Shown: in pieces, positions 1 through 49,366 of the stretch | How positions within the stretch are numbered: position 1 is the first letter of the stretch | Layout: each line of letters begins with the position of its first letter | Source: Candidatus Gottesmanbacteria bacterium | Lineage (GTDB): Bacteria > Patescibacteriota > Microgenomatia > 2-02-FULL-39-11 | DNA length: 60,063 nucleotides | NCBI GenBank assembly: GCA_016195685.1 | Contig: JACPZE010000026.1 | Span: 1 to 60,063, forward strand | Direction: 5' to 3' | The notes under the pieces: generated by a model | The model's input: the letters and a program-made list of their open reading frames with translations, nothing else | Told to the model about the DNA's origin: nothing | Databases searched by the model: none | Position numbers and translations under genes: made by a program

Positions 1-780
1 GGTAATTAGGTACATTCTACCGAAAATCGATTAAGATAAATAGTAGAATGGATCGCCGGAAATGTATATTTTGTAGATACTACCGTGCACGGGGCAATTC
101 TTTGGGTAGAATTTACTGCCCGAGATGCAAAAGGAGATATTCCTTTAAGAGAGCTGAAAGACTTGGAAAGATCATTGAATACTTTGCTTTGGAGATACCA
201 GCTAATAAAGCCAGCAAAGTATTGCACCTTAACTACAAGACCGTATACAGAGTCTACCAAAGACTCAGAGAGAAGATCGCTGGAAAAACCAAAGAAGAGT
301 TTAGAAAACTTTCTGGAGAGATTGAGATTGATGATGCCTACTTTGGTGGAAGAAGAAAGGGAAACAGAGGAAGAGCAGCTTCTGGAAAAACTCTTGTTCT
401 TGGCATGCTGGAGAGAGATGGAAGAGTATTTACCACTCTCCCAGAGAATCTCGAACTTGGACAAGTACTTGATGCCATTAGCAGGCATGCCGAGAAAGGC
501 AGTGTATTCTATACTGATCAATTTAGAAGCTACAAGTCCCTGTTTATCTATGGCAGACATCTGAGTCTTAATCATGCTGAGAAGTTTGCCAATGGGAGAG
601 TCCATATTAATGGTCTTGAAGGTTTCTGGTCCTTTGCAAAAGAGAGGATGCTTAAGTATCATGGGATATCTAAGAAACACTTTGCTCTTTACTTGAAGGA
701 ACTTGAGTTTCGATACAATCATAGAAAACAAGATTTAATAAAAATATTTACCGAATTATGGTAAAAAGTACCTAATTACC
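1..780 (+). mobile_element. IS1595-family insertion sequence
   Basis: 21-bp terminal inverted repeats, 19/21 identical (ggtaattaggtacattctacc at 1-21; reverse complement of 760-780 is ggtaattaggtactttttacc), enclosing one transposase ORF. Left flank and target duplication lie outside the window. Confidence 0.93.
48..764 (+). CDS. IS1595 (ISXO2-like) DDE transposase
   Basis: N-terminal CxxC..CxxC zinc finger; motifs EIDDAYFGG, YTDQFRSY, HINGLEGFWS, YLKELEFRYN. Stop codon falls inside the right TIR. Confidence 0.93.
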   Translation: MDRRKCIFCRYYRARGNSLGRIYCPRCKRRYSFKRAERLGKIIEYFALEIPANKASKVLHLNYKTVYRVYQRLREKIAGKTKEEFRKLSGEIEIDDAYFGGRRKGNRGRAASGKTLVLGMLERDGRVFTTLPENLELGQVLDAISRHAEKGSVFYTDQFRSYKSLFIYGRHLSLNHAEKFANGRVHINGLEGFWSFAKERMLKYHGISKKHFALYLKELEFRYNHRKQDLIKIFTELW

Positions 781-783
781 AGG

Positions 784-977
784 GTGAATATGTGACGGAG
801 GCGAAACCGTAAAAGTCAGCAACGAGTGTCGGAAACGGAGCTCGTCAGAAACAAGATTTTCTTACTGACGTGTCCCGATTTGATCGGGACATTTTTGTAA
901 GACGATAAATCAAGGTGGCACCACGAATAATTCGTCCTTGAGTATCCCCGCTTAGCGGGGAGAAAGGGGATTTTTTT
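784..977 (+). promoter_or_regulatory. T-box riboswitch (trp), stem I absent
   Basis: T-box aatcaaggTGGCaccacg (908-925); caagg 911-915 pairs with ccttg 936-940. Alternative terminator ends in T7 at 971-977, directly before the trpE ATG. S-turn-like GAA 786-788 / AGCA 818-821, F-box-like CTCGTCA 841-847, stem III 861-901. UGGC fits a G73 discriminator. No UGG specifier between the IS and the T-box. Confidence 0.85.
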
Positions 978-2342
978 ATGGATAATTTATTACCGAAAAT
1001 TAAATTAGGAAAATACCAGGAAGAGAAACTAGATTTATCTATTTCTGCTTTTGAGGCATTCAAAAGACTTTATCCTTATTTTAAGGATATATTTCTTTTG
1101 GAGTCACTAGGGGAGGAGGGGAAATTTAACAGATTTTCCTATATAGGATTTTCTCCGAAACTTATCATTTCGGCCAAAAATAAGGAATTGTTTATAAACG
1201 GAAAACTGATAAGTATTGAAAACCCGTACTTCTTTCTTTCAAAGTTAATGGAAAAATTCAAAAGCGCTGGGAATGGTTACTGTGGCGGCTTGGTAGGATT
1301 TTTCACTCATGAAGCTACGAAATACTTTGAACTTGCATTTACCGGGTACGAAAATTACGATTTTCCGGATTTCTTATGCGGATTTTTCTTGGATGGATTT
1401 CGTTTTGATAAAAAAACTAAGGAGGCCTTTTATTTCCATCACGGTGAATCAAGGCTTAAAAAGGTTTATCATCTTTTTCATAAGGAAGGCAAATTAGACA
1501 GCTTCCAGTTTGAGAAGCTGCAAAGTGCTAAAACAGAAAGTGACCATAAAGATATGGTTTTGAAGGCAAAAGAACATATAAAAAAGGGAGATATTTTTCA
1601 GGTTGTTTTAGCACTTAAGACTTTCTATAAAATTTCCGGGGACATAAGAAGGTTTTATGCGGTCCTTCGGCAAGTAAATCCAGCTCCGTACACTTTTTAT
1701 ATTAAATTTGGGGAAAGGATAGTAATTTCGGCTAGTCCTGAACTTCTTATCGGGGTAAAGGGAGATAAAATTGAGCATTTTGGAACACTGGCCGGAACAA
1801 TCAGACGTGGGGGAAACGATTTAGAGGATAATTTGCTGGCAGAGAAACTTTTAGGAGATGAGAAAGAGAAAGCAGAGCATATGATGTTGGTGGATTTAGC
1901 TCGAAACGATTTGGGTAGAATTTGTGAATTTGGAAGCGTCACGGTGGAAAAGCTATCAATAGTGAAAAAATACAGCCATGTACAGCATCTATATTCAGAA
2001 GTCAGGGGGAAACTCAAAAAGGGCGAGAATGCCTTTTCGGCTTTGGCTGCCTGTTTTCCGGCTGGTACTTTAACTGGTGCTCCCAAGATTGAGGCGATGA
2101 AAATAATAAAAAATCTGGAAAAAGAAGCAAGAGGTCCTTATGGTGGGGTGGGCGGATATTTTTCGCTAAATGGTGAGGCCATGCAGGCTATCACTATTCG
2201 TTCTATTTTTATTAATGGTAAGACTGCCTACACACAGACAGGTAGCGGAATTGTAGCTGATTCTGAACCAGAAAAAGAATATCAGGAGATTATAAATAAA
2301 CAAAAGGCAATTGAGGAGGCATTAAAACTCGCTAGTATATGA
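978..2342 (+). CDS. trpE: anthranilate synthase component I
   Basis: Chorismate-binding motifs GDIFQVVL, SPELL, EHMMLVDLARNDL, FPAGTLTGAPK; first gene of the trp operon. Confidence 0.92.
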   Translation: MDNLLPKIKLGKYQEEKLDLSISAFEAFKRLYPYFKDIFLLESLGEEGKFNRFSYIGFSPKLIISAKNKELFINGKLISIENPYFFLSKLMEKFKSAGNGYCGGLVGFFTHEATKYFELAFTGYENYDFPDFLCGFFLDGFRFDKKTKEAFYFHHGESRLKKVYHLFHKEGKLDSFQFEKLQSAKTESDHKDMVLKAKEHIKKGDIFQVVLALKTFYKISGDIRRFYAVLRQVNPAPYTFYIKFGERIVISASPELLIGVKGDKIEHFGTLAGTIRRGGNDLEDNLLAEKLLGDEKEKAEHMMLVDLARNDLGRICEFGSVTVEKLSIVKKYSHVQHLYSEVRGKLKKGENAFSALAACFPAGTLTGAPKIEAMKIIKNLEKEARGPYGGVGGYFSLNGEAMQAITIRSIFINGKTAYTQTGSGIVADSEPEKEYQEIINKQKAIEEALKLASI

Positions 2343-2917
2343 GAACACTTATTATTGATAACTATGATTCTTTTACTTATAACCTATACCAGTATATTGG
2401 GGAGTTGGGAGGAGAGCCTGATGTTGTGAGAAATGATCAATTAACGTTGCAAGATATTCAAACTAGAAAATATTCTCATATTGTTATTTCTCCGGGCCCG
2501 GGGGACCCTTCTGACGTGGCATATTTTGGAGTCTGCAAAGACGTAATTTTGACCTTTGGTAAAAATATACCTCTTTTGGGGGTATGTCTGGGGCATCAAG
2601 GGATAATTTATGCCTTGGGTGGCAAAGTCATAAGGGCTCCACTTATCAAGCATGGCAAAACTAGTGTAATCAAACATAACCAAAAAGAAATTTTTGAAAA
2701 TGTCAAAAACCCGCTAGTAGGTATGCGTTACCACTCACTGATTGGAGAAAAAGTGAGTCTGCCGGATAGTTTGGAGATAATCGCAATTTCAGCTGATGAC
2801 AAAGCTATTATGGGCGTTGCACATAAAAAATTCCCCATATTCGGAGTACAGTTTCATCCAGAATCGATAGGAACAGAAGAGGGAAAGAAAATTCTTACGA
2901 ATTTTCTATCAATATGA
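2339..2917 (+). CDS. trpG: anthranilate synthase component II (glutamine amidotransferase)
   Basis: IDNYDSFTYNL, SPGPG, GVCLGHQ, QFHPES. Confidence 0.93.
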   Translation: MRTLIIDNYDSFTYNLYQYIGELGGEPDVVRNDQLTLQDIQTRKYSHIVISPGPGDPSDVAYFGVCKDVILTFGKNIPLLGVCLGHQGIIYALGGKVIRAPLIKHGKTSVIKHNQKEIFENVKNPLVGMRYHSLIGEKVSLPDSLEIIAISADDKAIMGVAHKKFPIFGVQFHPESIGTEEGKKILTNFLSI

Positions 2918-3924
2918 TCAATATACTTCTGAACAAACTAATTGAAACAAAAGATTTAACACAAGAAGAAGCCATATGTTTGATGGAAGAAATCTTGGAG
3001 GGAAATCTTACTTCGGCCCAGATTGCAGCCATTCTTGTAGCTTTAAGAATGAAAGAAGAGATACCCGAGGAAATATTAGGATTTATCAAAGTTATGAGAA
3101 AACATATGGTGAAAATTAAAACTAAGGGGTTAGTGATAGATACTTGCGGTACGGGTGGGGATGGGAAGGGAACTTTTAATATCTCAACCGCAGTTGCTTT
3201 TGTGATTGTCGGAGCAGGTGTTTCAGTCGCCAAACACGGCAACAGAAATGCCAGTTCTGCCTGTGGCAGTGCGGATGTACTTGAAGCATTGGGAGTCAAC
3301 ATCAACTTGACGCCAAAAGAGGCAGAAAAGATGCTTTCAAAAACTAAATTTACCTTTTTATTTGCGCCTCTCTATCATCCAGCCATGAGACATGTTGGGG
3401 AAGTCAGAAAAGAGCTAAAAATAAGGACAGTTTTTAATTTCTTAGGCCCGTTTGCCAGTCCGGCGAGTGTCAGGCGGCAAATCATTGGCGTTCCAAATAT
3501 AAAACTAGCCGGGAAACTAGCTAAGGTTGCCTCAAATCTGAATTACGATCATTTATTGTTAGTAACAAGTGAGGATGGATTGGATGAGATAAGTCTATCT
3601 TCCCCAACGCATATTTTTGAAGTTAAGGGAAAACAAGTTAAAAAAATGATTATTAATGGAAAGGACTATGGATTTGAAAAGTCCTCACTTGTCGAAATTA
3701 AAGGGGGAGATGCAAAAAGGAATGCTGAAATAATCAAAGATATTATGAAAGGTAAGAATGGACCTTGTAAAGATATTATCGTTTTAAATAGTGCAGTAGG
3801 ACTTTATGTAGCAGGTAAGGTAAAAAATATTGGTGAGGGACTTAAATTTGCTCAAAAATCAATAGAAGAAGGAAATGCAAAAAAAGTATTGGCAATGGTT
3901 ATCAAATATTCACGATATCTATGA
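2914..3924 (+). CDS. trpD: anthranilate phosphoribosyltransferase
   Basis: DTCGTGGDG, TFNISTA, KHGNR, RTVFNFLGP, GLDEIS. Confidence 0.96.
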   Translation: MINILLNKLIETKDLTQEEAICLMEEILEGNLTSAQIAAILVALRMKEEIPEEILGFIKVMRKHMVKIKTKGLVIDTCGTGGDGKGTFNISTAVAFVIVGAGVSVAKHGNRNASSACGSADVLEALGVNINLTPKEAEKMLSKTKFTFLFAPLYHPAMRHVGEVRKELKIRTVFNFLGPFASPASVRRQIIGVPNIKLAGKLAKVASNLNYDHLLLVTSEDGLDEISLSSPTHIFEVKGKQVKKMIINGKDYGFEKSSLVEIKGGDAKRNAEIIKDIMKGKNGPCKDIIVLNSAVGLYVAGKVKNIGEGLKFAQKSIEEGNAKKVLAMVIKYSRYL

Positions 3925-4661
3925 AAAACAAACTTACACAGATACTGGACAATAAAATGAAAGAAGTTTCCCAGAAAAAGAAAAAAAGAGATTTCTTAGG
4001 GGCAATAACAAATCCCAAAATGGGAGATATTTCAATAATTGCTGAGATTAAACTTGCATCTCCGACTGCCGGTAAGTTAGGAGAAGAAAAAGATATAGAA
4101 AAACAGGTATTAATGTATGAAAAAAGTTATGCTGATGGGATTTCCGTAGTAGTCGACAAAAAATATTTTGACGGAGAGTTGGAATTTATCAAACAAATTA
4201 AAAATACAGTTTCTCTTCCGCTCCTAGCCAAGGATTTTATCATCGATCCTTATCAGATTTATGAAGCAAAACTTTACGGAGCTGACGCAATATTATTGAT
4301 AGCAAAGATATTGACCAAAAAGAAACTCCAGAAATTTGTCAAACATTGTTTTGATGCTGGGTTGGAACCGGTAGTTGAAGTACAGAATAAAAAAGAGTTG
4401 GAAAAAGTGTTGAATATTGGTACTAGGATTATTGCTGTGAACGCACGAGGTCTGTCAACTTTTAAGGTAGACGTAGACGGAGCATGTCAGCTGATCAAAA
4501 GTATTCCAAAAGAGTTTGTAAGTTTGGGTTTTTCAGGAGTCTTGGGGATAAATGAGGTAGAACAATATAAGAAAGCCGGTGCAAAAGGAATATTGGTGGG
4601 AATAACCCTAATGAAATCAAAAAATCCCGGAAAAGTTATAAAGGAGTTTAAAGGATTATGA
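3921..4661 (+). CDS. trpC: indole-3-glycerol phosphate synthase
   Basis: IIAEIKLASPT, LLAKDFIIDPYQI, GADAILLI, VNARGL. Confidence 0.93.
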   Translation: MKNKLTQILDNKMKEVSQKKKKRDFLGAITNPKMGDISIIAEIKLASPTAGKLGEEKDIEKQVLMYEKSYADGISVVVDKKYFDGELEFIKQIKNTVSLPLLAKDFIIDPYQIYEAKLYGADAILLIAKILTKKKLQKFVKHCFDAGLEPVVEVQNKKELEKVLNIGTRIIAVNARGLSTFKVDVDGACQLIKSIPKEFVSLGFSGVLGINEVEQYKKAGAKGILVGITLMKSKNPGKVIKEFKGL

Positions 4662-5278
4662 AAGTAAAAGTAAAAATTTGTGGTGTCAAGACATTGGAAG
4701 CTGCACAGGCTAGTATTAACGCGGGAGCTGACTTTTTGGGATTTAATTTTGTGCCGACTTCAAAACGTTTAATGAGTAATGGAATCGCCAAGCAAATTAT
4801 CGATGAGTTGCCAAAAACAATAGCAAAAGTTGGAGTATTTATGGATGCGGATATTTTGGAAATCCATAAATTAATTAATTACTTGAAACTTGATTATGTT
4901 CAGTTGCATGGCAATGAATCACCTAAATACGTTTCATCGGTGCAGGGAGCTGGAATAATAAAAACTATTTCATTACCTATTGAGTTTGATGTCGAAAAAA
5001 CAAAACAGAAAATGAAAAAATATCAAGTTGATTATTTTTTATTAGACAGAGAAGAACAGGGAAGGGGAAAAATGTTAGATTTAGATATGGTAAAGGAGTT
5101 AACTTCAGCCTTCCCCATCATTTTAGCTGGAGGATTAACAGTTGAAAATGTTTCTCAAACGGTTAAATTAGCTCATCCTCAAGTCGTAGATGTGGCCGGC
5201 GGAGTAGAGGCAAATGGGGCAAAAGATAAAGAAAGAATCACCGAATTTATAAAAAACGCTAAACTTTATGATATTTGA
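4658..5278 (+). CDS. trpF: phosphoribosylanthranilate isomerase
   Basis: [32 protein letters not shown]. Confidence 0.94.
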
Positions 5279-6518
5279 TTTTCATACCAAATACGATGGT
5301 GACGGTAAAGGACATTTCGGAGAATACGGTGGCAGATTTGCTCCGGAAATGCTTATACCTGCCTTGGAAGAATTAGAGGCAGCATATAAAAATGCTAAAA
5401 AAGATAAAAAATTTGAGCAGGAATTTTTAGAATTGCTTCATAGTTTCGCCGGCAGACCTACTCCTTTAACTTTTGCCAAAAATCTCACAAAGAAATTAAA
5501 CGGCGCCAAAATTTACTTCAAAAACGAAGGACTAAATATAACAGGCGCCCATAAAATTACACACTGTTTAGGTCAGGCGCTACTGGCAAAAAAAATGGAT
5601 AAAAAGAGGATAATCGCAGAAACTGGGGCGGGTCAGCACGGAGTAGCTGCCGCCACAGTGGCTGCTAAATTTGGGTTTTCCTGCACTGTATATATGGGGG
5701 AAGTGGATGTTGCCCGACAAAGACCAAACGTTTTCTGGATGCAGCAGCTGGGGGCGGAAGTGATACCGGTGAAATTTGGCAGCAGGACTCTTAAAGACGC
5801 AGTCAATGCAGCATTGAAAGATTGGATAACGAATGTAGAGAGTACACATTATTTACTCGGTTCTACTGTAGGCCCTCATCCGTTTCCAACCATCAATCGT
5901 GATTTTCAATCAGTGGTCGGAATGGAAGTTAAAGAACAGATTAAGAAATCAGAAGGAAGGCTGCCGGATTATCTGATAGCCTGTGTGGGAGGAGGTAGTA
6001 ACGCAATAGGACTTTTTTACAGATTTTTGAATGATGGAAAAGTGAAAATGATAGGTGTTGAAGCAGGAGGTAGAGGTGTAGAAAAGATAGGAGATCATGC
6101 CACCAGATTTTACGGCGGAGAAACAGGAGTGGTAGAGGGGTATAAATCCGTATTTTTGCAGGATGAGTATGGCAATTTAGCACTAACTCACAGTGTCTCG
6201 GCAGGGTTGGATTATCCAGGAATAGGTCCGCAACTGGCATATCTGAAAGAGCAAGGCAGGGCCGATTTTACATATGCAACGGATAAAGAAGTACTGGATG
6301 CGTTTAAACTATTAGCAAAAACTGAAGGAATAATTTGCGCTTTAGAATCAGCTCACGCAGTGGCGGGAGCGATAAAACTTGTACCTACACTTTCTAAAGA
6401 CAAGATAGTTGTAGTAAATCTTTCAGGAAGAGGGGATAAAGATATTTTCATAGTGGCCGAGGCACTAAAAGATAAAGAGTGGAGAGATTTTATAAGGAGT
6501 AAAGTGTATGAATATTAA
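5268..6518 (+). CDS. trpB: tryptophan synthase beta chain
   Basis: GAHKI (PLP lysine), [37 protein letters not shown]. Confidence 0.97.
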
Positions 6519-6522
6519 TTTA

Positions 6523-6677
6523 CGGGTCTTGCATATTATTAAAAATATAAATTTTTCAGACTCTGCAGCTCGCGCTCGGTATATCCCTTACCTTCTGTCC
6601 ATGTACCTTATTATTCTCACGCTCAATTGCAGAGATCTTCAAAATTTCTATTTTTAAACATGATCTCGCGTCACCCG
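6523..6677. repeat. nested palindromic element: family A arms enclosing a family B element
   Basis: Arms cgggtcttg...ctcgcgtcacccg match copies at 39642, 43540 and 55562; inner 6545-6647 matches 26745-26853. Confidence 0.85.
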
Positions 6678-6694
6678 CTATTAAAATAAATGTT

Positions 6695-7495
6695 ATGAAT
6701 GCTATAGAAAAAAAACTAATTCAATTAAAAAAAGAAAATAGATTAGGTCTTATAGCTCATGCAGTTTTGGGTTATCCGAATATGGAGAAAAGTTTAGAGA
6801 TTATAAATAGTTTAATTTCAAATGGCAGCGATTTTTTGGAATTGCAAATACCATTTTCTGATCCGGTAGCGGATGGGGAGACAATTATGAAAGCTTGCGA
6901 AGTAGCCTTGAAAAGCGGAATGAATACAGATGAGGCTTTTGAACTTGTTGGTAATTTAAGAAGGGCTGTTAACGTACCTATATTACTTATGGCTTATTAC
7001 AATACGATTTTTCGATACGGAATAAAGAGATTTTGCAAAAAAGCAAAAGATTTAAGAGTTTCTGGGATAATTGTTCCGGATATTCCACCTGAGGAAGAGA
7101 TAGCAGAGAAATTTATAACTACTTCCTTAGAATATGATATTTATCCGATCCGTGTAGTTTCACCCTCAAGTAGTATTAATAGGTTGGAAATCAATGCACG
7201 ATTTGCCAGAGGATTTGTATATTGTATAAGTCATTTTGGGGTTACTGGAACAAAGACAGTAGTTGACGATCGGCTTACAAGATATTTGCAAAGAGTTAAA
7301 CAAATTATGAAATTACCCGTTGCAGTAGGATTTGGACTTTCAAAAGCAGAGCAGATAGAAGCATTAAAAGGTGTTGCAGATATTGTAATCGTGGGAAGCG
7401 CAATTATCAAAAATTATAATGAGGGAGGAATAAAGCAAGTAAGCTCGTTTATAAAAAGTTTAAAAGAAAGTACAATGGGGAAAGGATATATATGA
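6695..7495 (+). CDS. trpA: tryptophan synthase alpha chain
   Basis: LELQIPFSDPVADGETI, LLMAYYN, IVPDIPPEE, VGFGLS, VGSAII. Confidence 0.96.
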   Translation: MNAIEKKLIQLKKENRLGLIAHAVLGYPNMEKSLEIINSLISNGSDFLELQIPFSDPVADGETIMKACEVALKSGMNTDEAFELVGNLRRAVNVPILLMAYYNTIFRYGIKRFCKKAKDLRVSGIIVPDIPPEEEIAEKFITTSLEYDIYPIRVVSPSSSINRLEINARFARGFVYCISHFGVTGTKTVVDDRLTRYLQRVKQIMKLPVAVGFGLSKAEQIEALKGVADIVIVGSAIIKNYNEGGIKQVSSFIKSLKESTMGKGYI

Positions 7496-8193
7496 GAGGA
7501 TTAGGAACAATTTTCAACGTTATTACTGTACTAATTGGTGGCAGCCTGGGACTTCTTATCGGTTCACGATTTAATAAAGACTTAAATAAAGCAGTGATAG
7601 GGGTAAATGGATTCGTATCAATGGTTATTGGTATTCAGATGGCGTTTACCTCAAAGAATATTTTGATTGTTTTAATAAGTTTGGCATTGGGAGTAATTAT
7701 CGGTGAAATTATTGATATTGAAGGGCGACTGCAGAGGTTTAGTCAACATATGGAAGATAAATTCGGCCGCGGTGAGGAAGGAAAATTTGCCAAAGGATTT
7801 CTGACTACAAGTATCCTTTTTTGTGTGGGGCCACTCACAATACTGGGTTCTTTACAGGACGGACTTACGGGTGATATTAAACTACTTGCAACCAAATCGA
7901 TCCTTGATGGTTTTTCTTCTATAGTATTTGCTTCTGCATTTGGAGTAGGAGTGATGTTTACCATAATAACAATTATAGTCGTGCAGGGGAGTCTTACTCT
8001 TCTTGCTGGTACATTGAGTGGAATACTGACACAAGCAGTAATTGCCGAACTGACCGGAGTTGGTGGTATCATGGTAATATCAATCGGTTTGGGACTGTTA
8101 GAGATAAAAAAATACAAGACTGCCAACATGTTACCGGCACTTTTGATTGCGCCGATAATAGTTATGTTATTAACTTATTTTAAATTTATATGA
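7492..8193 (+). CDS. DUF554-family multi-pass membrane protein
   Basis: GTIFNVITVLIGGSLG start, LFCVGPLTILGSLQDGL, KSILDGFSS; mostly hydrophobic helices. Confidence 0.85.
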   Translation: MRGLGTIFNVITVLIGGSLGLLIGSRFNKDLNKAVIGVNGFVSMVIGIQMAFTSKNILIVLISLALGVIIGEIIDIEGRLQRFSQHMEDKFGRGEEGKFAKGFLTTSILFCVGPLTILGSLQDGLTGDIKLLATKSILDGFSSIVFASAFGVGVMFTIITIIVVQGSLTLLAGTLSGILTQAVIAELTGVGGIMVISIGLGLLEIKKYKTANMLPALLIAPIIVMLLTYFKFI

Positions 8194-9704
8194 CAGATCC
8201 AAAAGTAAAAAAATACAGTGAGGAGTTGAAAAAGTTGGGCATTGAACACGAAATTTTGAAACATCCACAACTGGTTTCAGTTGAGGCGGTACAAAAATAT
8301 CTAGGATATGGTTTGGAAGATGCTGGAGCAACGCTCGTAATTAAGGTAGATGATAAGTTTATTGCCATAATTAGAAGGGGAGATACGAAATTAGATAATG
8401 AAAGAGTAAAAAAATATCTGGGTGTTGCCAATCTTCGAATGGCAAATGAAGAAGAATTTACAAAACTTACCGGAGTTCCAAGCGGTGCGGCTAGCGTCTA
8501 TATTCCCAGTTTGCCGACATATATAGACAAAAAAATCTTTGAAAAAGAATACATAAACGCAGGATCAGGAAGTCTTCTCTATACTTTCCGATACAAGACT
8601 AGTGATTTGAAAAAAATTCCAGGTATCAAAGTAGTTGATTTCACATCGATAGAATCAGAAAAGAAGAGTTCTTTAATTGATATAAAGGGAAAAAGGATTC
8701 TCTCTGGCATAACACCAAGTGGTGATGGCACTTTGCATATCGGTAATTACTTGGGAGCAGTAAAGCAGTTTATTGAATTTGCGAAAAATGGTGATTGTTA
8801 TCTTATGGTTGCGGATCTGCATGCGCTTACAACCATACAAAATAAAGCACAACTACAAAAGAATACGGAAACGTTGATCTTAAACGAACTTGCTTTATTA
8901 GGAAACCTTACAAATATCGTCTTTTTTAGACAATCTGATGTGCCGATGCACGCGGAGTTGACTTGGATCTTAAATAACGTTACTCCTCTGGGACTTTTAC
9001 GTCGCGCTCATGCATACAAAGATAAACTTTCAAAGGACGTGATGGAAGATGAAATAAACTTGGGGCTTTTTAATTACCCGATTCTTATGGCATCAGATAT
9101 ACTACTTTATAAACCAGATTTTGTACCTGTCGGGCGCGATCAGAAACAGCATATAGAAATCTGTCGGGATATTGCGGGAAGATTAAATAAGACATATAAA
9201 TCTGACGTTTTAAAACTTCCGAAACCATATATCCCGGAAGATGTAGCAGTAGTCATGGGTACTGATGGAAAGAGAAAAATGAGTAAATCTTTGGGGAATA
9301 TCATAAGTATATTTGATGATGAAATTGTAATAAAAAAACAAGTGATGAGTACTTATACGGATCCTACAAGAATTCATTCGAATGATCTGGGACATATAGA
9401 AGGGAATATGGTATTTGCATACCTTGATTTCTTTGGTGAAAAAAACAAAGTTTCAGAACTGAAAGATTTATACAAAGAGGGTAAAGTAGCGGATGTGGAA
9501 GTGAAAAATTATTTATTTGAGTCGTTGATGAAAACATTTAAAGATGCGCGAGTCCGATATCAGGAGCTTAAAAATAACCCACAAAAAGTTACAAAGATAT
9601 TATCGAATGGAGCAGATAGAGCTCGAGAGGTAGCTGGAAAAACCATGATGGAGGTGCGGGATGCGATAGGGTTGACCAATAATTACTCGTTCTTCAAATA
9701 TTAA
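8190..9704 (+). CDS. trpS: tryptophanyl-tRNA synthetase with N-terminal YbaK/ProX-like domain
   Basis: HIGN and KMSKS motifs, VPVGRDQKQH. The first ~150 aa resemble YbaK/INS-type editing domains (LRMANEEEF, TGVPSGA, NAGSGS). Confidence 0.92.
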   Translation: MTDPKVKKYSEELKKLGIEHEILKHPQLVSVEAVQKYLGYGLEDAGATLVIKVDDKFIAIIRRGDTKLDNERVKKYLGVANLRMANEEEFTKLTGVPSGAASVYIPSLPTYIDKKIFEKEYINAGSGSLLYTFRYKTSDLKKIPGIKVVDFTSIESEKKSSLIDIKGKRILSGITPSGDGTLHIGNYLGAVKQFIEFAKNGDCYLMVADLHALTTIQNKAQLQKNTETLILNELALLGNLTNIVFFRQSDVPMHAELTWILNNVTPLGLLRRAHAYKDKLSKDVMEDEINLGLFNYPILMASDILLYKPDFVPVGRDQKQHIEICRDIAGRLNKTYKSDVLKLPKPYIPEDVAVVMGTDGKRKMSKSLGNIISIFDDEIVIKKQVMSTYTDPTRIHSNDLGHIEGNMVFAYLDFFGEKNKVSELKDLYKEGKVADVEVKNYLFESLMKTFKDARVRYQELKNNPQKVTKILSNGADRAREVAGKTMMEVRDAIGLTNNYSFFKY

Positions 9705-44905: not shown

Positions 44906-45119
44906 CAAATTATAAAGACGTATAATACCGAATTCCATCGGTAGAGTCGCTTTACGAAAATCCCGCTCAGCGGGAATTAAGTAAAGCCGGGTATTCCCGT
45001 TACAGAAGAAATAAGAAAGTAATCAGAAATAACTGATTATTTAATTTAGGTGGTACCACGGAAGATAACTTTCGTCCTGAAATTCCGAGTTTTATCGTCG
45101 GAAAGTAAGGACTTTTTTT
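44906..45119 (+). promoter_or_regulatory. T-box riboswitch (ser) with an ultrashort stem I
   Basis: T-box aatttaggTGGTaccacg 45043-45060 with 3' strand ttcgtcct; AGTA 44980-44983; F-box CCCGTTA 44996-45002; hairpin taccga-atTCCa-tcggta 44926-44943; terminator gtcct...aggac plus T7 abutting the ATG. Confidence 0.87.
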
Positions 45120-47009
45120 ATGGATAAAACATATTTCATCATCGATTTTGACAGTACTTTTGTACAGGTAGAGACGCTGGAAGTTTTAGCAGAAGTTGCT
45201 CTTTTGAAAAACCCGAAGAGAGATTTCATATTGGAAAAAATAAGAAAGATAACAGAGCAGGGGATGAATGGTAAGATCAGTTACGAGAAATCATTGGGAG
45301 AAAGGTTGAAATTATTTCAAGCCAGCCAAAAAAATGTGGATGATCTGGTAAAGATATTGAAAAAGAAGATCACTCCATCCATAACGCGCAATAAAGAGTT
45401 TTTCAAAAAATATAAAGACAAGATATATATCATTTCCGGCGGATTTAAGGAATACATGGTACCACTTTTTAAAACTTTCAAGATAGAAAAAGATCATATT
45501 TTGGCTAATAATTTTATTTTTGACAAAAAAGGTTACATCGTGGGTGTTGATAAAAAAAATCCCCTGTCTCATGCCAGAGGCAAAGCGGCAATAATAAAGT
45601 CATTGCAGCTTAAAGGTAAAATTTATGTGATCGGTGATGGCTACACAGATTATGAAATCAAAAAAGCAGGACTCGCAGATAAATTTTTTGTCTTTCACGA
45701 AAATGTGAAAAGAGAAGCTGTAATCGGTAAGGCAGATCATCTTTTGCCGAACTTCGATGAATTTTTGTACCAGTTGGATTTGCCAAGGGCGTATTCTTAT
45801 CCCAAAAGTAAAATAAAAGTATTATTGTTGGAAAATATCCATAAAAATGCTTTTGAAATATTTCAAAAGGAAGGATATCAAGTGGAGTCACTAACTGGCT
45901 CTTTTGACGAGGAAGAACTAATAAGGAAACTCCAAGATGTAAATATAGTCGGCATAGGATCCAGAACGCAGATTAGCAAAAAAGTGATAGAGGAGGTTCC
46001 TAGACTTCTATCTGTAGCAAGATTTGGAATAGGAGTAAATAACATAGATCTGAAAACCTGTGCTGGGGCTGGTGTTGCGGTATTTAACGCACCATATAGT
46101 AATACTCGCAGTGTGGTGGAATTAGCATTGGGTGAGATAATCATGCTTTACAGGCGTGTTTTTGAAAAAAGCGATAAGCTACATCGCGGAATTTGGGATA
46201 AATCCGCCAAAAATTGTCATGAATTGAGAGGTAAGAAACTTGGTATCGTGGGTTATGGAAACATCGGGTCACAAATTTCTGTACTAGCTGAGATGCTGGG
46301 AATGGAGGTATATTTTTATGATATTTTGGAGAGATTGCCTCTTGGAAAAGCAATAGTCTGTACTTCTTTAAATGAGCTTTTGCGAATTTCAGATGTCATA
46401 AGTATCCATGTAGATGGTAGACGTGAAAACACAAACCTTATTGGCGAGAAAGAATTTAAGTTTATGAAAGATGGAGTCTTGTTTATAAATACCAGCCGGG
46501 GGTCGGTAGTAGATTTAGAGGCATTAGCGAAGTTTGTAAAAAGTGGCAAAGTGTTGGGTGTTGCATTGGATGTTTTCCCCAAAGAACCCAAAAGTAACGA
46601 TGAGAAGTTTGTCTCGATAATCCAAGGGTTGCCGAATGTTATACTCACGCCTCATATAGGCGGCAGATCAGAGGAAGCCCAGGCAGATATGGGTAAGTTT
46701 GTGCCAGAGAAAGTTATAAGTTTTATCAACACTGGTAATACTACATTGAGTCTTAATTTTCCCAACTTGCAACTGCCGCAGCTTAGAAACGCCCATAGAC
46801 TTATACATATACATCATAACGTGCCGGGAGTTTTGGCAAAGATAAACAATGTTTTAGCTGCGAATAAGATTAATATCGAGGGGCAGTACTTAAAAACTAA
46901 TGAGGAGATAGGATATGTGATTACCGATGTCGATAAGTCCTACGACAAGGATGTTTTACAAAAATTACGCCAGATTCCCGAAACAATCAAATTCAGGGTT
47001 TTATATTGA
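45120..47009 (+). CDS. serA: phosphoglycerate dehydrogenase with an N-terminal HAD phosphatase (SerB-SerA-ACT fusion)
   Basis: DFDST, ISGG and GDGYTD HAD motifs; GYGNIG, NTSRG, TPHIGG; C-terminal ACT domain HHNVPGVL. Confidence 0.92.
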   Translation: MDKTYFIIDFDSTFVQVETLEVLAEVALLKNPKRDFILEKIRKITEQGMNGKISYEKSLGERLKLFQASQKNVDDLVKILKKKITPSITRNKEFFKKYKDKIYIISGGFKEYMVPLFKTFKIEKDHILANNFIFDKKGYIVGVDKKNPLSHARGKAAIIKSLQLKGKIYVIGDGYTDYEIKKAGLADKFFVFHENVKREAVIGKADHLLPNFDEFLYQLDLPRAYSYPKSKIKVLLLENIHKNAFEIFQKEGYQVESLTGSFDEEELIRKLQDVNIVGIGSRTQISKKVIEEVPRLLSVARFGIGVNNIDLKTCAGAGVAVFNAPYSNTRSVVELALGEIIMLYRRVFEKSDKLHRGIWDKSAKNCHELRGKKLGIVGYGNIGSQISVLAEMLGMEVYFYDILERLPLGKAIVCTSLNELLRISDVISIHVDGRRENTNLIGEKEFKFMKDGVLFINTSRGSVVDLEALAKFVKSGKVLGVALDVFPKEPKSNDEKFVSIIQGLPNVILTPHIGGRSEEAQADMGKFVPEKVISFINTGNTTLSLNFPNLQLPQLRNAHRLIHIHHNVPGVLAKINNVLAANKINIEGQYLKTNEEIGYVITDVDKSYDKDVLQKLRQIPETIKFRVLY

Positions 47010-48094: not shown

Positions 48095-49366
48095 ATGCTA
48101 GATATAAAATTTATACGGGAAAACTTAGAGCTTGTCAAAAAGGCAGCTGAAGATAAAAATCGCGAAGTGGATTGGGAGAAATTATTAGTGCTTGATGAGA
48201 AGAGGCGGAAATTGATTGTTGATATTGAAAGCTTACGCGCACAGCGGAATAAATGGTCAGATCTTAAACCACCAAATTTGAAAACAGGATTGACAGAGGG
48301 AAATAAAATCAGAGAGCAAGGAAAGAAATTAAAAGAGGAGATAAAAAAGTTAGAAGAAGAATTAAGTAGTGTTGAGAAAGAATTTACTACATTGATGCTC
48401 TTAGTACCCAATGTGCCCGATAAGAGCGTTCCAATAGGAAAAGATGCATCAGGAAACAAAGAAGTGAAGCAGTGGGGGGAAGTACCGAAGTTTGATTTCA
48501 AGCCTCTTGATCACATTGAGCTTGGTAAAAAATTGGATCTCATAGATTTTGAGCGAGGAGTGAAAGTGGGAGGATTTCGGACTTATTTTCTGAAAAATGA
48601 GGCAGCGCTTTTGGAAATCGCCGTATTAACATATGCATACCAAAAGTTAGCTAAAAAAGGATACATTCCGCTAGTTGCCCCATCACTAGTTCGTGGATTT
48701 ACTCTTTTTGGCAACGGCCAGTTTCCATGGGGTAGGGAAGAAGTTTATCATCTTGAAAAAGATGATATGTATATTGCAGGTACAGCTGAAGTCCCTGTGA
48801 CTGCTTATTTTGCCAATGAAATTTTAAACGAAAAAGAAATGCCTAAAAAATTTGTGGCATTTTCCCCTTGTTTCAGACGAGAAGCCGGAAGTTACGGGAA
48901 AGATACGAAAGGGCTTTACAGATTACATCAGTTTAACAAAGTAGAGCAGGTGATTATTACCACCAATGATTACGAAAATTCATTAAAACTCCACGAAGAA
49001 TTATTGGAAAACTCTGAAGAAGTTTTGCAGGATCTGAAGCTTCCTCACAGAGTGATGCTGATGTGTACTGGAGATATGGGTGAGCCTCAGGTGAAAAAAT
49101 ATGATGTAGAAACCTGGATGCCGGGAAGAAACGCATATGGTGAGACGATGTCTAATTCTTTCATGGGTGATTTCCAGGCGCGCAGATTAAACATTCGCTA
49201 CAAATCATCAGACGGTACTACTAAAGTTGCTCACACATTAAACAATACCGCCGTCGCCTCACCCCGAATTCTTATTGCCATCCTCGAAAATTATCAGCAA
49301 GCAGACGGCTCGGTAGTAGTGCCGGAAGTTTTACGGGACTTTGTGGGAGAAGAAGTAATAAAATAA
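48095..49366 (+). CDS. serS: seryl-tRNA synthetase
   Basis: MLDIKFIREN, GTAEVP, FRREAGSYG, HQFNKVEQ, HTLNNT. Confidence 0.97.
   Translation: MLDIKFIRENLELVKKAAEDKNREVDWEKLLVLDEKRRKLIVDIESLRAQRNKWSDLKPPNLKTGLTEGNKIREQGKKLKEEIKKLEEELSSVEKEFTTLMLLVPNVPDKSVPIGKDASGNKEVKQWGEVPKFDFKPLDHIELGKKLDLIDFERGVKVGGFRTYFLKNEAALLEIAVLTYAYQKLAKKGYIPLVAPSLVRGFTLFGNGQFPWGREEVYHLEKDDMYIAGTAEVPVTAYFANEILNEKEMPKKFVAFSPCFRREAGSYGKDTKGLYRLHQFNKVEQVIITTNDYENSLKLHEELLENSEEVLQDLKLPHRVMLMCTGDMGEPQVKKYDVETWMPGRNAYGETMSNSFMGDFQARRLNIRYKSSDGTTKVAHTLNNTAVASPRILIAILENYQQADGSVVVPEVLRDFVGEEVIK

Follow-up and report, generated by a model that had tools for sequence, protein, structure and literature searches.

Insertion sequences (IS) in regulatory leaders switch operons on or off, as IS1 and IS5 do at bgl of Escherichia coli. 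We analysed a stretch of 60,063 nt from Candidatus Gottesmanbacteria bacterium (assembly GCA_016195685.1, contig JACPZE010000026.1, positions 1 to 60,063; in the following called the window), which begins with an IS of the IS1595 family directly upstream of the 3′ two-thirds of a T-box leader and the tryptophan (trp) operon behind it. As with IS1 and IS5 at bgl, a mobile element in a 5′ regulatory region would give a heritable expression variant segregating in a population. Unlike at bgl, the predicted effect is a loss of induction, with a riboswitch split between its two tRNA-contacting modules. Because public reads of the same population show an intact leader, the insertion can be no more than a knock-out confined to a minority or to one sample, and it is biologically ordinary. 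What is likely to last longer is the comparison of leaders, which revealed a family of Trp T-boxes (plus one Ser T-box) with a very short stem I and terminator output that lies below the Rfam threshold.

The closest described leaders are T-boxes upstream of ileS in Actinobacteria such as Mycobacterium tuberculosis and Nocardia farcinica, in which stem I is short or ‘ultrashort’ (‘class II’ in TBDB). The leaders described here resemble them in a stem I with a kink-turn (K-turn) at its base, few base pairs and the specifier in the terminal loop followed by a purine (PMC7583486), and also in the missing distal platform for the tRNA elbow. They further share a stem II, here with a putative S-turn, a stem III and a UGGN bulge, and they have a putative stem IIA/B with a CGUCA-type, F-box-like sequence. 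In contrast to the actinobacterial leaders with their pure sequestrator, they end in an intrinsic terminator with a U-run, which covers the ribosome-binding site as well. UGG and UCC replace AUC as specifiers, the hosts are uncultured groundwater bacteria instead of Actinobacteria, and a variable linker (6–45 nt, sometimes with an extra hairpin) separates stem I from stem II. In TBDB, transcriptional T-boxes have a longer stem I than translational ones (PMC7778990).

Canonical leaders of the Rfam family RF00230, including the Trp T-boxes at trp of Firmicutes, have in common with the present ones the T-box sequence, the competition of antiterminator and terminator, the UGG/UGGC logic for tRNA-Trp and the place before trpE. 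They differ in that all leaders of the present class stay below the RF00230 gathering score (32–69 versus 93 bits), because about 74 stem I model positions are replaced by about 8 nt. For the mobile element, the closest described system is the IS1016 subgroup with ISApl4, an element of 712 bp with 14-bp inverted repeats and 8-bp A/T-rich duplications; A/T-rich 8-mers are the preferred targets of IS1016-type elements (PMC12561309). The element in the window is alike in its size of 780 bp, its one transposase, which has about 240 aa and carries the same catalytic signature, its perfect 13-bp repeats and its many copies per genome, and unlike in its target at the trp site, AGGGTGAA, which is not A/T-rich.

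The T-box leader behind the insertion sequence

The window opens with a complete IS1595-family (IS1016-subgroup-like) insertion sequence of 780 bp (1–780, + strand) bounded by inverted repeats. The left terminal repeat, GGTAATTAGGTAC, occupies 1–13 on the + strand, and its perfect reverse complement 768–780 (− strand). This 13-nt repeat occurs in the window just at these two places, against a chance expectation of 0.06, and the inverted repeat continues imperfectly to 37 nt with 78% complementarity. Within it lies an intact transposase gene of 238 aa (48–764, + strand), oriented as the trp operon. The open reading frame (ORF) matched Pfam DDE_Tnp_IS1595 (PF12762; E 4e-31) and NCBIfam transpos_IS1595 (NF033547; E 1.6e-42, 145.8 bits, cut-off 75). 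Its catalytic signature, EIDDAYFG-(52)-VFYTDQFRSY-(23)-HINGLEGFWSFAK-(14)-LYLKELEFRYN, matches the signature given for the IS1016 subgroup with almost identical spacing (PMC12561309). The GC content of the IS (38.7%) is close to that of the remaining window (37.4%).

Directly behind the right terminal repeat follows a T-box leader without its first part. The first 8 bases of the right flank, AGGGTGAA (781–788, + strand), are the expected, putative right copy of an 8-bp target duplication; elements of this family duplicate 7–9 bp, usually 8 bp, and as a rule A/T-rich sequence. Stem II (784–823, + strand) begins 3 nt after the repeat. It is predicted by the fold to comprise an S-turn-like GAA (786–788) opposite AGCA (818–821), a helix (791–796/815–821) and the apical GGAGGCGAAACCG, and the bases g784 t785 G786 A787 A788 and AGCAAC (818–823) are present at the coordinates that the sequence-only reading gave. 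The next elements, all on the + strand, are a stem IIA/B-like hairpin (822–845; the feature spans 822–847) ending in an F-box-like CGUCA (843–847), stem III (855–911) with an inner GC-rich hairpin (870–892), the antiterminator (910–941), supported by both the fold and the Rfam alignment, and the terminator (934–977). The antiterminator is composed of helix A1 (910–915/936–941), the T-box bulge UGGCACC (916–922) and helix A2 (923–927/931–935). The intrinsic terminator hairpin (934–971) is followed by a U-run (971–977) and has −20.1 kcal/mol when folded alone. From 781 up to the T-box bulge, there is neither a stem I nor a UGG codon.

The fold of 781–980 has a z-score of −4.1, and none of 200 shuffles was equally stable. 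Across four aligned leaders, the stem II block AAUAUGnnnCGGAGGCGAAACCGUnAAAGnCnGnAAC is almost invariant, GUCA is invariant in all four and CGUCA is found in three; the F-box of N. farcinica ileS reads CCGUCA (PMC7583486). The GAA/AGCA pair of motifs, the helix 791–796/815–821 and CGUCA are present and conserved in the leader, and the S-turn and a IIA/B pseudoknot are putative. The bulge lies within AAGGUGGCACCACG (912–925), where the Rfam alignment has a high posterior probability. Its UGGC is complementary to the 3′ GCCA end, that is, to the G73 discriminator of bacterial tRNA-Trp. The terminator overlaps the 3′ strand of the antiterminator (A1 3′ strand, 936–941), so that the two structures are mutually exclusive. 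In addition, the 3′ strand of the terminator contains a Shine-Dalgarno-like AAAGGGG, and the U-run adjoins the ATG of trpE at 978.

Judged by the features of RF00230, the window allele possesses the 7-nt bulge between A1 and A2 and the mutually exclusive terminator, and it has no contiguous stem I with a K-turn and a matching specifier. The trp leader scores 32 bits (E 1.5e-5 in a 401-nt search) against the gathering score of 93, and at the gathering threshold Rfam gave no match in the window and nine relatives. What the model aligned as ‘stem I’ are IS bases 746–771, forced into it with non-canonical pairs. The same forced alignment offers UAU as the codon after GAA 786–788. We rejected this candidate, since GAA belongs to stem II, the true specifier UGG lies in an upstream hairpin and the bulge UGGC fits tRNA-Trp.

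The IS-free allele and related leaders

We used Logan contigs from SRR12113410, SRR12113414, SRR12113415 and sister runs of the same study. Five of these groundwater-metagenome runs (X1 to X4 and X20) hold the trp locus at 4–8x depth. A contig of 702 nt from X2 is identical to window 780–1366 (587 nt) and extends leftwards by 115 different bases; a contig of 499 nt from X20 is identical to the window from 780 on (362 nt) and extends leftwards by 137 different bases. The left parts of both end in ...AGCAAGCCCCGCACCAGAGAAAGCTCGGTA. By aligning run contigs on the related leader L081 at 80% likeness, we caught a further contig in X1 (135 nt, depth 6.8 compared with 6.6 for trp), which overlaps this end of the left parts of X2 and X20 by 24 nt. 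Further to the left it matches over 38 nt, with one mismatch, the L081 stem I segment TTAGAAAACCTATGATCCGGATGGTTGGAACCGGGGAG, preceded by TTGACAATTATGGTATGATATATAACAAAG and followed by CTTCACAGCAAGCCCCGCACCAGAGAAAGC... Together, these contigs give the empty site almost in full.

The IS-free leader starts with a promoter-like TTGACA..TATGAT, followed by a K-turn and a 5-bp stem I, the terminal loop of which, AUGGUUGGAA, carries UGG-A; the stem I/promoter region contains TTGACAATTATGG... After stem I follows a linker of about 45 nt and then ...GGUAC/AGGGUGAAUAUG (the slash marks the IS point), meeting the window at 780/781. The empty-site junction can be written as ...GCUCGGUAC/AGGGUGAAUAUG or as ...GCTCGGTAC/AGGGTGAATATG, and in DNA reads ...CCAGAGAAAGCTCGGTAC/AGGGTGAATATGTGACGG. 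The insertion point is located between ...GGUAC and AGGGUGAA, 3 nt upstream of stem II, probably in a linker of about 7 nt before stem II and after the likely 3′ strand of the K-turn stem (GGU). Because AGGGTGAA is present there as a single copy, the empty site seems to be the ancestral state, not a scar left by excision. With its truncated stem I, the specifier in the terminal loop, no distal platform and a stem II, the IS-free allele belongs to the short-stem-I T-boxes, as do six relatives. Its stem I sequence occurs nowhere else in the window. An exact-sequence look-up of TrpE returned no record, and those of TrpG and TrpF returned only short Logan contigs without a leader.

The search for relatives of this leader was extended through TrpE. 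Among GTDB species representatives, a TrpE scan found no close relative (best about 47% identity, including Patescibacteria and other metagenome-assembled genomes). These nearest relatives, the groundwater habitat and genes of the window such as those for a UMP kinase of archaeal type and a DNA ligase dependent on ATP tentatively indicate a Patescibacteria-like organism. A homologue search with the TrpE N-terminus found no same-species fragments and relatives of at most 61% identity, one of them giving leader L161. In total, intact leaders are available from L081 (TrpE 67% identical), L082, L161, L005, L086 and L099, which are metagenome contigs and an ENA contig. All six show a promoter-like region, then a hairpin of 5–7 bp with UGG in a loop of 6–10 nt (core GGUUGGA), a variable linker that sometimes holds an extra hairpin, and the near-invariant stem II block AAUAUGnnnCGGAGGCGAAACCGU..AAAGnCnGnAAC (corresponding to the window from 787 onward). 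The stem sequences differ and the pairing is kept (UCCGG/CCGGG, GUCCGGA/UCCGGAU, UUCGG/CCGGA and GGGAUC/GAUCCU). In L081, the Rfam model places AACCUAUGAUCCGG...CCGGGGAGGU on the K-turn (GA motif) and the first helix of stem I; the posterior probability of this alignment is high, and it has only 8 nt where RF00230 has 74 model positions.

A second leader of this design lies in the same genome, an intact Ser T-box (44912–45125, + strand) found by motif search, with an RF00230 score of 69 bits (E 6e-15) and a fold z-score of −5.5. Its stem I reads GAC-GUAUAA-UACCGA-AUUCCA-UCGGUA-GA-GUC and exposes UCC-A in a 6-nt loop. It is followed by a serA-like gene (45120–47009, + strand), and the last gene of the cluster is serS (48095–49366). 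Because 69 bits is less than the gathering score, this T-box would be missed by standard annotation. Among the intact leaders, RF00230 gave 47.6 bits for L081, 35.5 for L161 and 69.2 for the Ser T-box, so that the class ranges from 32 to 69 bits against the 93 required; such leaders are probably missed in metagenome annotation.

These leaders also resemble each other in their output. The window leader and the relatives have a GC-rich hairpin followed by 5–7 U and do not show the sequestrator-only arrangement of translational T-boxes. The U-run adjoins the start codon in the window, L081 and L082, is 0–3 nt away from it in L005, L086 and L099, and about 20 nt in L161. At the equivalent place, the terminator 3′ strand bears a Shine-Dalgarno-like purine run in L081, L161, L082, L005, L086 and L099. 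The terminator hairpin could thus act in a dual mode, stopping transcription and also preventing the start of translation.

These comparisons bear on what the sequence-only reading had said about the leader. Its account of the right side of the IS, from stem II to the terminator and without stem I or UGG, was correct to the base by fold and motif positions. It had proposed to look for IS-free alleles in related genomes; one with a stem I and UGG exists in the same population, in the X1, X2 and X20 contigs described above, and stem I is carried by all six related IS-free loci. Its wording that the IS sits where stem I should be can be kept in part: the decoding hairpin is split from stem II, the discriminator-reading bulge and the terminator, but stem I is not replaced, and a tiny hairpin should remain to the left of the IS.

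It seems possible, and we propose it only tentatively, that two things hold together: that the trp and ser leaders of this genome and the trp leaders of the relatives form an undescribed terminator-type T-box class of uncultured (Patescibacteria-like) groundwater bacteria below Rfam detection, with a K-turn and about 5 bp of stem I and the codon in the terminal loop, and that the IS allele is a real, segregating ‘split T-box’ that toggles tryptophan synthesis and TrpRS supply between tRNA-responsive and locked-off. Insertion of an IS into a leader is nothing out of the ordinary; a minimal-stem-I, terminator-type Trp/Ser T-box family is less ordinary. Our literature search found no paper linking T-boxes with Patescibacteria or the Candidate Phyla Radiation, and none describing, by title or abstract, an IS in a trp T-box.

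Further T-box leaders of the same class, belonging to other organisms or genes, are contained in contigs of X1 to X3 and X20 that align on L081:999-1130 or on window 796–899; two of them read ...GGTACGGAGCCGAAACCGTAAAAAGACCGG... and ...AAAAGTATGTGACGGGGACAAAGC... As several other such leaders are present in the same samples, the short-stem-I design is common in this community. A different arrangement was seen in L083 (positions 1035–1110; TrpE 49% identical), a more distant relative without a T-box. In its place, a small leader ORF, MQRMIRASQNWWGLVSS..., contains tandem Trp codons and precedes a hairpin that resembles a terminator, which suggests classical attenuation by a leader peptide.

Copies of the element and standing of the insertion allele

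The IS reaches a depth of 27–37x in the five runs, against 4–8x at the trp locus, an IS-to-trp ratio of about 5–6 in every one of them. The IS is therefore multicopy and resident, with about 5–6 copies per genome equivalent. In the run contigs, copies of the IS continue on the right in at least three different ways (TAATTGC..., TAATTCT... and A..). The transposase type and catalytic signature, the perfect 13-nt terminal repeats around an element of 780 bp (about 0.7–1.1 kb being usual) and the several copies per genome with differing flanks together agree with membership in IS1595/IS1016. The terminal repeat was absent from all 162 fetched loci, and an exact-sequence look-up of the transposase returned no record.

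Other copies, seen as loose ends at window position 780 in X3, X4 and X20, run on with TAATTGCTTATT... or TAATTCTATTTT..., which are A/T-rich and have TAATT in common; the copy at the trp locus runs on with AGGGTGAA instead. The assembled IS copy of X2, X3 and X4 has one additional A after base 206 (781 nt), by which the frame shifts after codon 53 and the transposase is split. The copy in the window and the X20 contig represent the 780-nt form with the intact 238-aa ORF, and the X1 contigs break at 206/207. The majority of IS copies in three of the five runs carry the frame-splitting A; either most copies may be inactive, or the run of A may be slippery. In X5 to X12, runs from other groundwater studies (2015–2024), about 7–14% of the sampled words of window 600–1600 were found, roughly the IS share of that query. 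This suggests near-identical IS copies in groundwater metagenomes of several independent studies.

In the native leader, the K-turn and the 5-bp stem I would show UGG-A to tRNA-Trp, and stem II, positioned by the K-turn, would clamp the codon–anticodon duplex. The IS would place a translated insert of 780 nt between stem I and stem II. The short stem I would then no longer be positioned against the S-turn of stem II, and docking of tRNA-Trp would be lost. Without a stabilised antiterminator, the terminator (934–977) would form by default and also bury the ribosome-binding site, and transcripts from either the native or the transposase promoter would end there. The expected outcome would be a tRNA-blind trpEGDCFBA-DUF554-trpS operon with low basal expression, and the cost of low tryptophan and TrpRS levels would fit the rarity of the allele. 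A locked-off leader is a reasonable prediction because T-boxes with a short stem I cannot bind tRNA without stem II and the K-turn (PMC7583486). The anatomy of the IS and of the 3′ part of the T-box, the IS-free allele, the conserved short stem I and the depth ratios are observed; the loss of function, the frequency and fitness cost of the allele and the duplication of 8 bp are inferred.

Whether the window reports a true allele depends on the join between the IS and the trp leader. We give a real insertion in the trp T-box leader, as a minority or sample-specific allele, a slightly better than even chance. The IS end and the empty site have just one base in common (C780); the junction therefore cannot come from a shared k-mer, and a de Bruijn assembler needs true junction reads to make it. 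The break in the window coincides to the base with the IS terminus, as expected of a true insertion, the X1 trp contig begins exactly at 781, and the IS is resident, with an intact-transposase variant among its copies. These points speak against an assembly artefact, in which all cells would have the intact T-box, there would be no knock-out, and the assembler or chimeric reads would have joined or extended the contig end into the multicopy IS. Such an artefact is a possibility to be taken seriously, if not one that we would expect to be true. It fits several observations that weigh against a real insertion. The window starts exactly at IS base 1 and thus terminates in a repeat, so that the left flank and its copy of the target duplication lie outside it. 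No Logan contig of X1 to X4 or X20 spans the IS-trp junction, though junctions of other IS copies survive, and in a run search with 96 nt centred on the junction, no run had more than three of the six sampled words. All informative public runs show the IS-free allele, which reaches the full depth of the locus in X1 and runs into trpE without a break in X2 and X20. Not being A/T-rich, the target AGGGTGAA is unusual for this IS, while the right flanks of two other copies start with TAATT. Furthermore, trpS lies behind the same terminator; if the cell has no other TrpRS gene, complete locking-off could be lethal. A 60-kb contig from a population of 4–8x per run suggests co-assembly, where a minor or spurious edge could be followed. 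Contigs at 4–8x show presence and not absence, which makes any estimate of the allele frequency soft.

The two remaining explanations concern the function of the leader. A real insertion might rewire the operon instead of silencing it, with constitutive expression of trp and trpS through transposase read-through or from a promoter, outward or hybrid, at the end of the IS. The transposase gene does face the operon, its stop lies 16 nt from the end of the IS, no terminator intervenes, and there is a weak promoter-like site at 633–662. However, transcripts from the IS would still meet the complete terminator (934–977) before trpE, stabilisation of the antiterminator is not expected without stem I, and promoter-like sites number 27 versus 31 expected from shuffles, with none at the IS end. 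We consider rewiring improbable. An outward promoter in the IS end was recognised neither by scan nor by eye, and the control by the IS that the sequence-only reading had allowed for is unsupported, with no outward promoter above chance. Nor did any observation speak for the reversible switch that it had named as an alternative. Its other proposal, a regulatory knock-out of the trp operon, survives as a prediction for a locked-off leader and has to be narrowed to an allele that is at best minor or sample-specific, with the IS-free allele in every informative run and the junction in none. Finally, the leader could never have had a stem I, being a stem-I-less or degenerate T-box with the IS merely upstream, as the missing stem I to the right of the IS and the Rfam score of just 32 bits might indicate. 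The K-turn and UGG hairpin in the IS-free allele of the same population, in all six related leaders and in the Ser T-box of this genome rule out a naturally stem-I-less T-box as a candidate and leave this explanation with hardly any probability.

Other contigs end near the insertion point. The X1 IS-free contig ends at about 799, and the X1 trp contig begins at 781, a start that chance alone hardly accounts for. The leader contig of X3 begins at 791, directly after the Illumina adapter sequence TCCCTACACGACGCTCTTCCGATCT. Contigs with the left flank of an IS were obtained from X2 (328 nt), X3 (362 nt) and X20 (60, 40 and 35 nt). The two long ones probably belong to other IS copies, because the IS-free contigs of the trp locus all break 115–137 nt upstream. 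The left junction predicted for the trp insertion is ...GCTCGGTACAGGGTGAA/GGTAATTAGGTACATTC, that is, ...GCTCGGTACAGGGTGAA joined to GGTAATTAGG.

If the IS allele is real, it would be a natural knock-out that separates the short stem I from stem II, the two modules whose docking holds the tRNA anticodon, and a ready-made negative control for the minimal T-box design. It would also mean that IS activity yields regulatory polymorphism in an uncultured small-genome bacterium, in which lost control of tryptophan synthesis and TrpRS has a clear ecological meaning. Should the junction prove to be an artefact, it would warn against taking contig ends within a multicopy IS for insertions when no reads support them.

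The trp operon downstream of the leader

The leader is followed on the + strand by trpE (978–2342), trpG (2339–2917), trpD (2914–3924), trpC (3921–4661), trpF (4658–5278), trpB (5268–6518), trpA (6695–7495), a gene for a DUF554 membrane protein (7492–8193) and trpS (8190–9704), all assigned by Pfam. Since their start and stop codons overlap, trpA, the DUF554 gene and trpS belong to one operon. The otherwise tightly overlapping arrangement is broken by a gap of 176 nt between trpB and trpA (6519–6694), in which scans gave no + strand promoter, terminator or RNA family.

The final gene of this T-box-led operon, and the only TrpRS gene seen in the window, matched TIGR00233 (trpS) with 286 bits (cut-off 177) and encodes a TrpRS with an N-terminal editing domain of the YbaK/ProX type (Pfam tRNA_edit, residues 25–142; tRNA-synt_1b, residues 169–451). 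Judged by their titles, the papers that a literature search brought up dealt only with aminoacyl-tRNA synthetases (aaRS) of eukaryotic parasites or with aaRS in general. The fusion with an editing domain looks unusual for a bacterial TrpRS.

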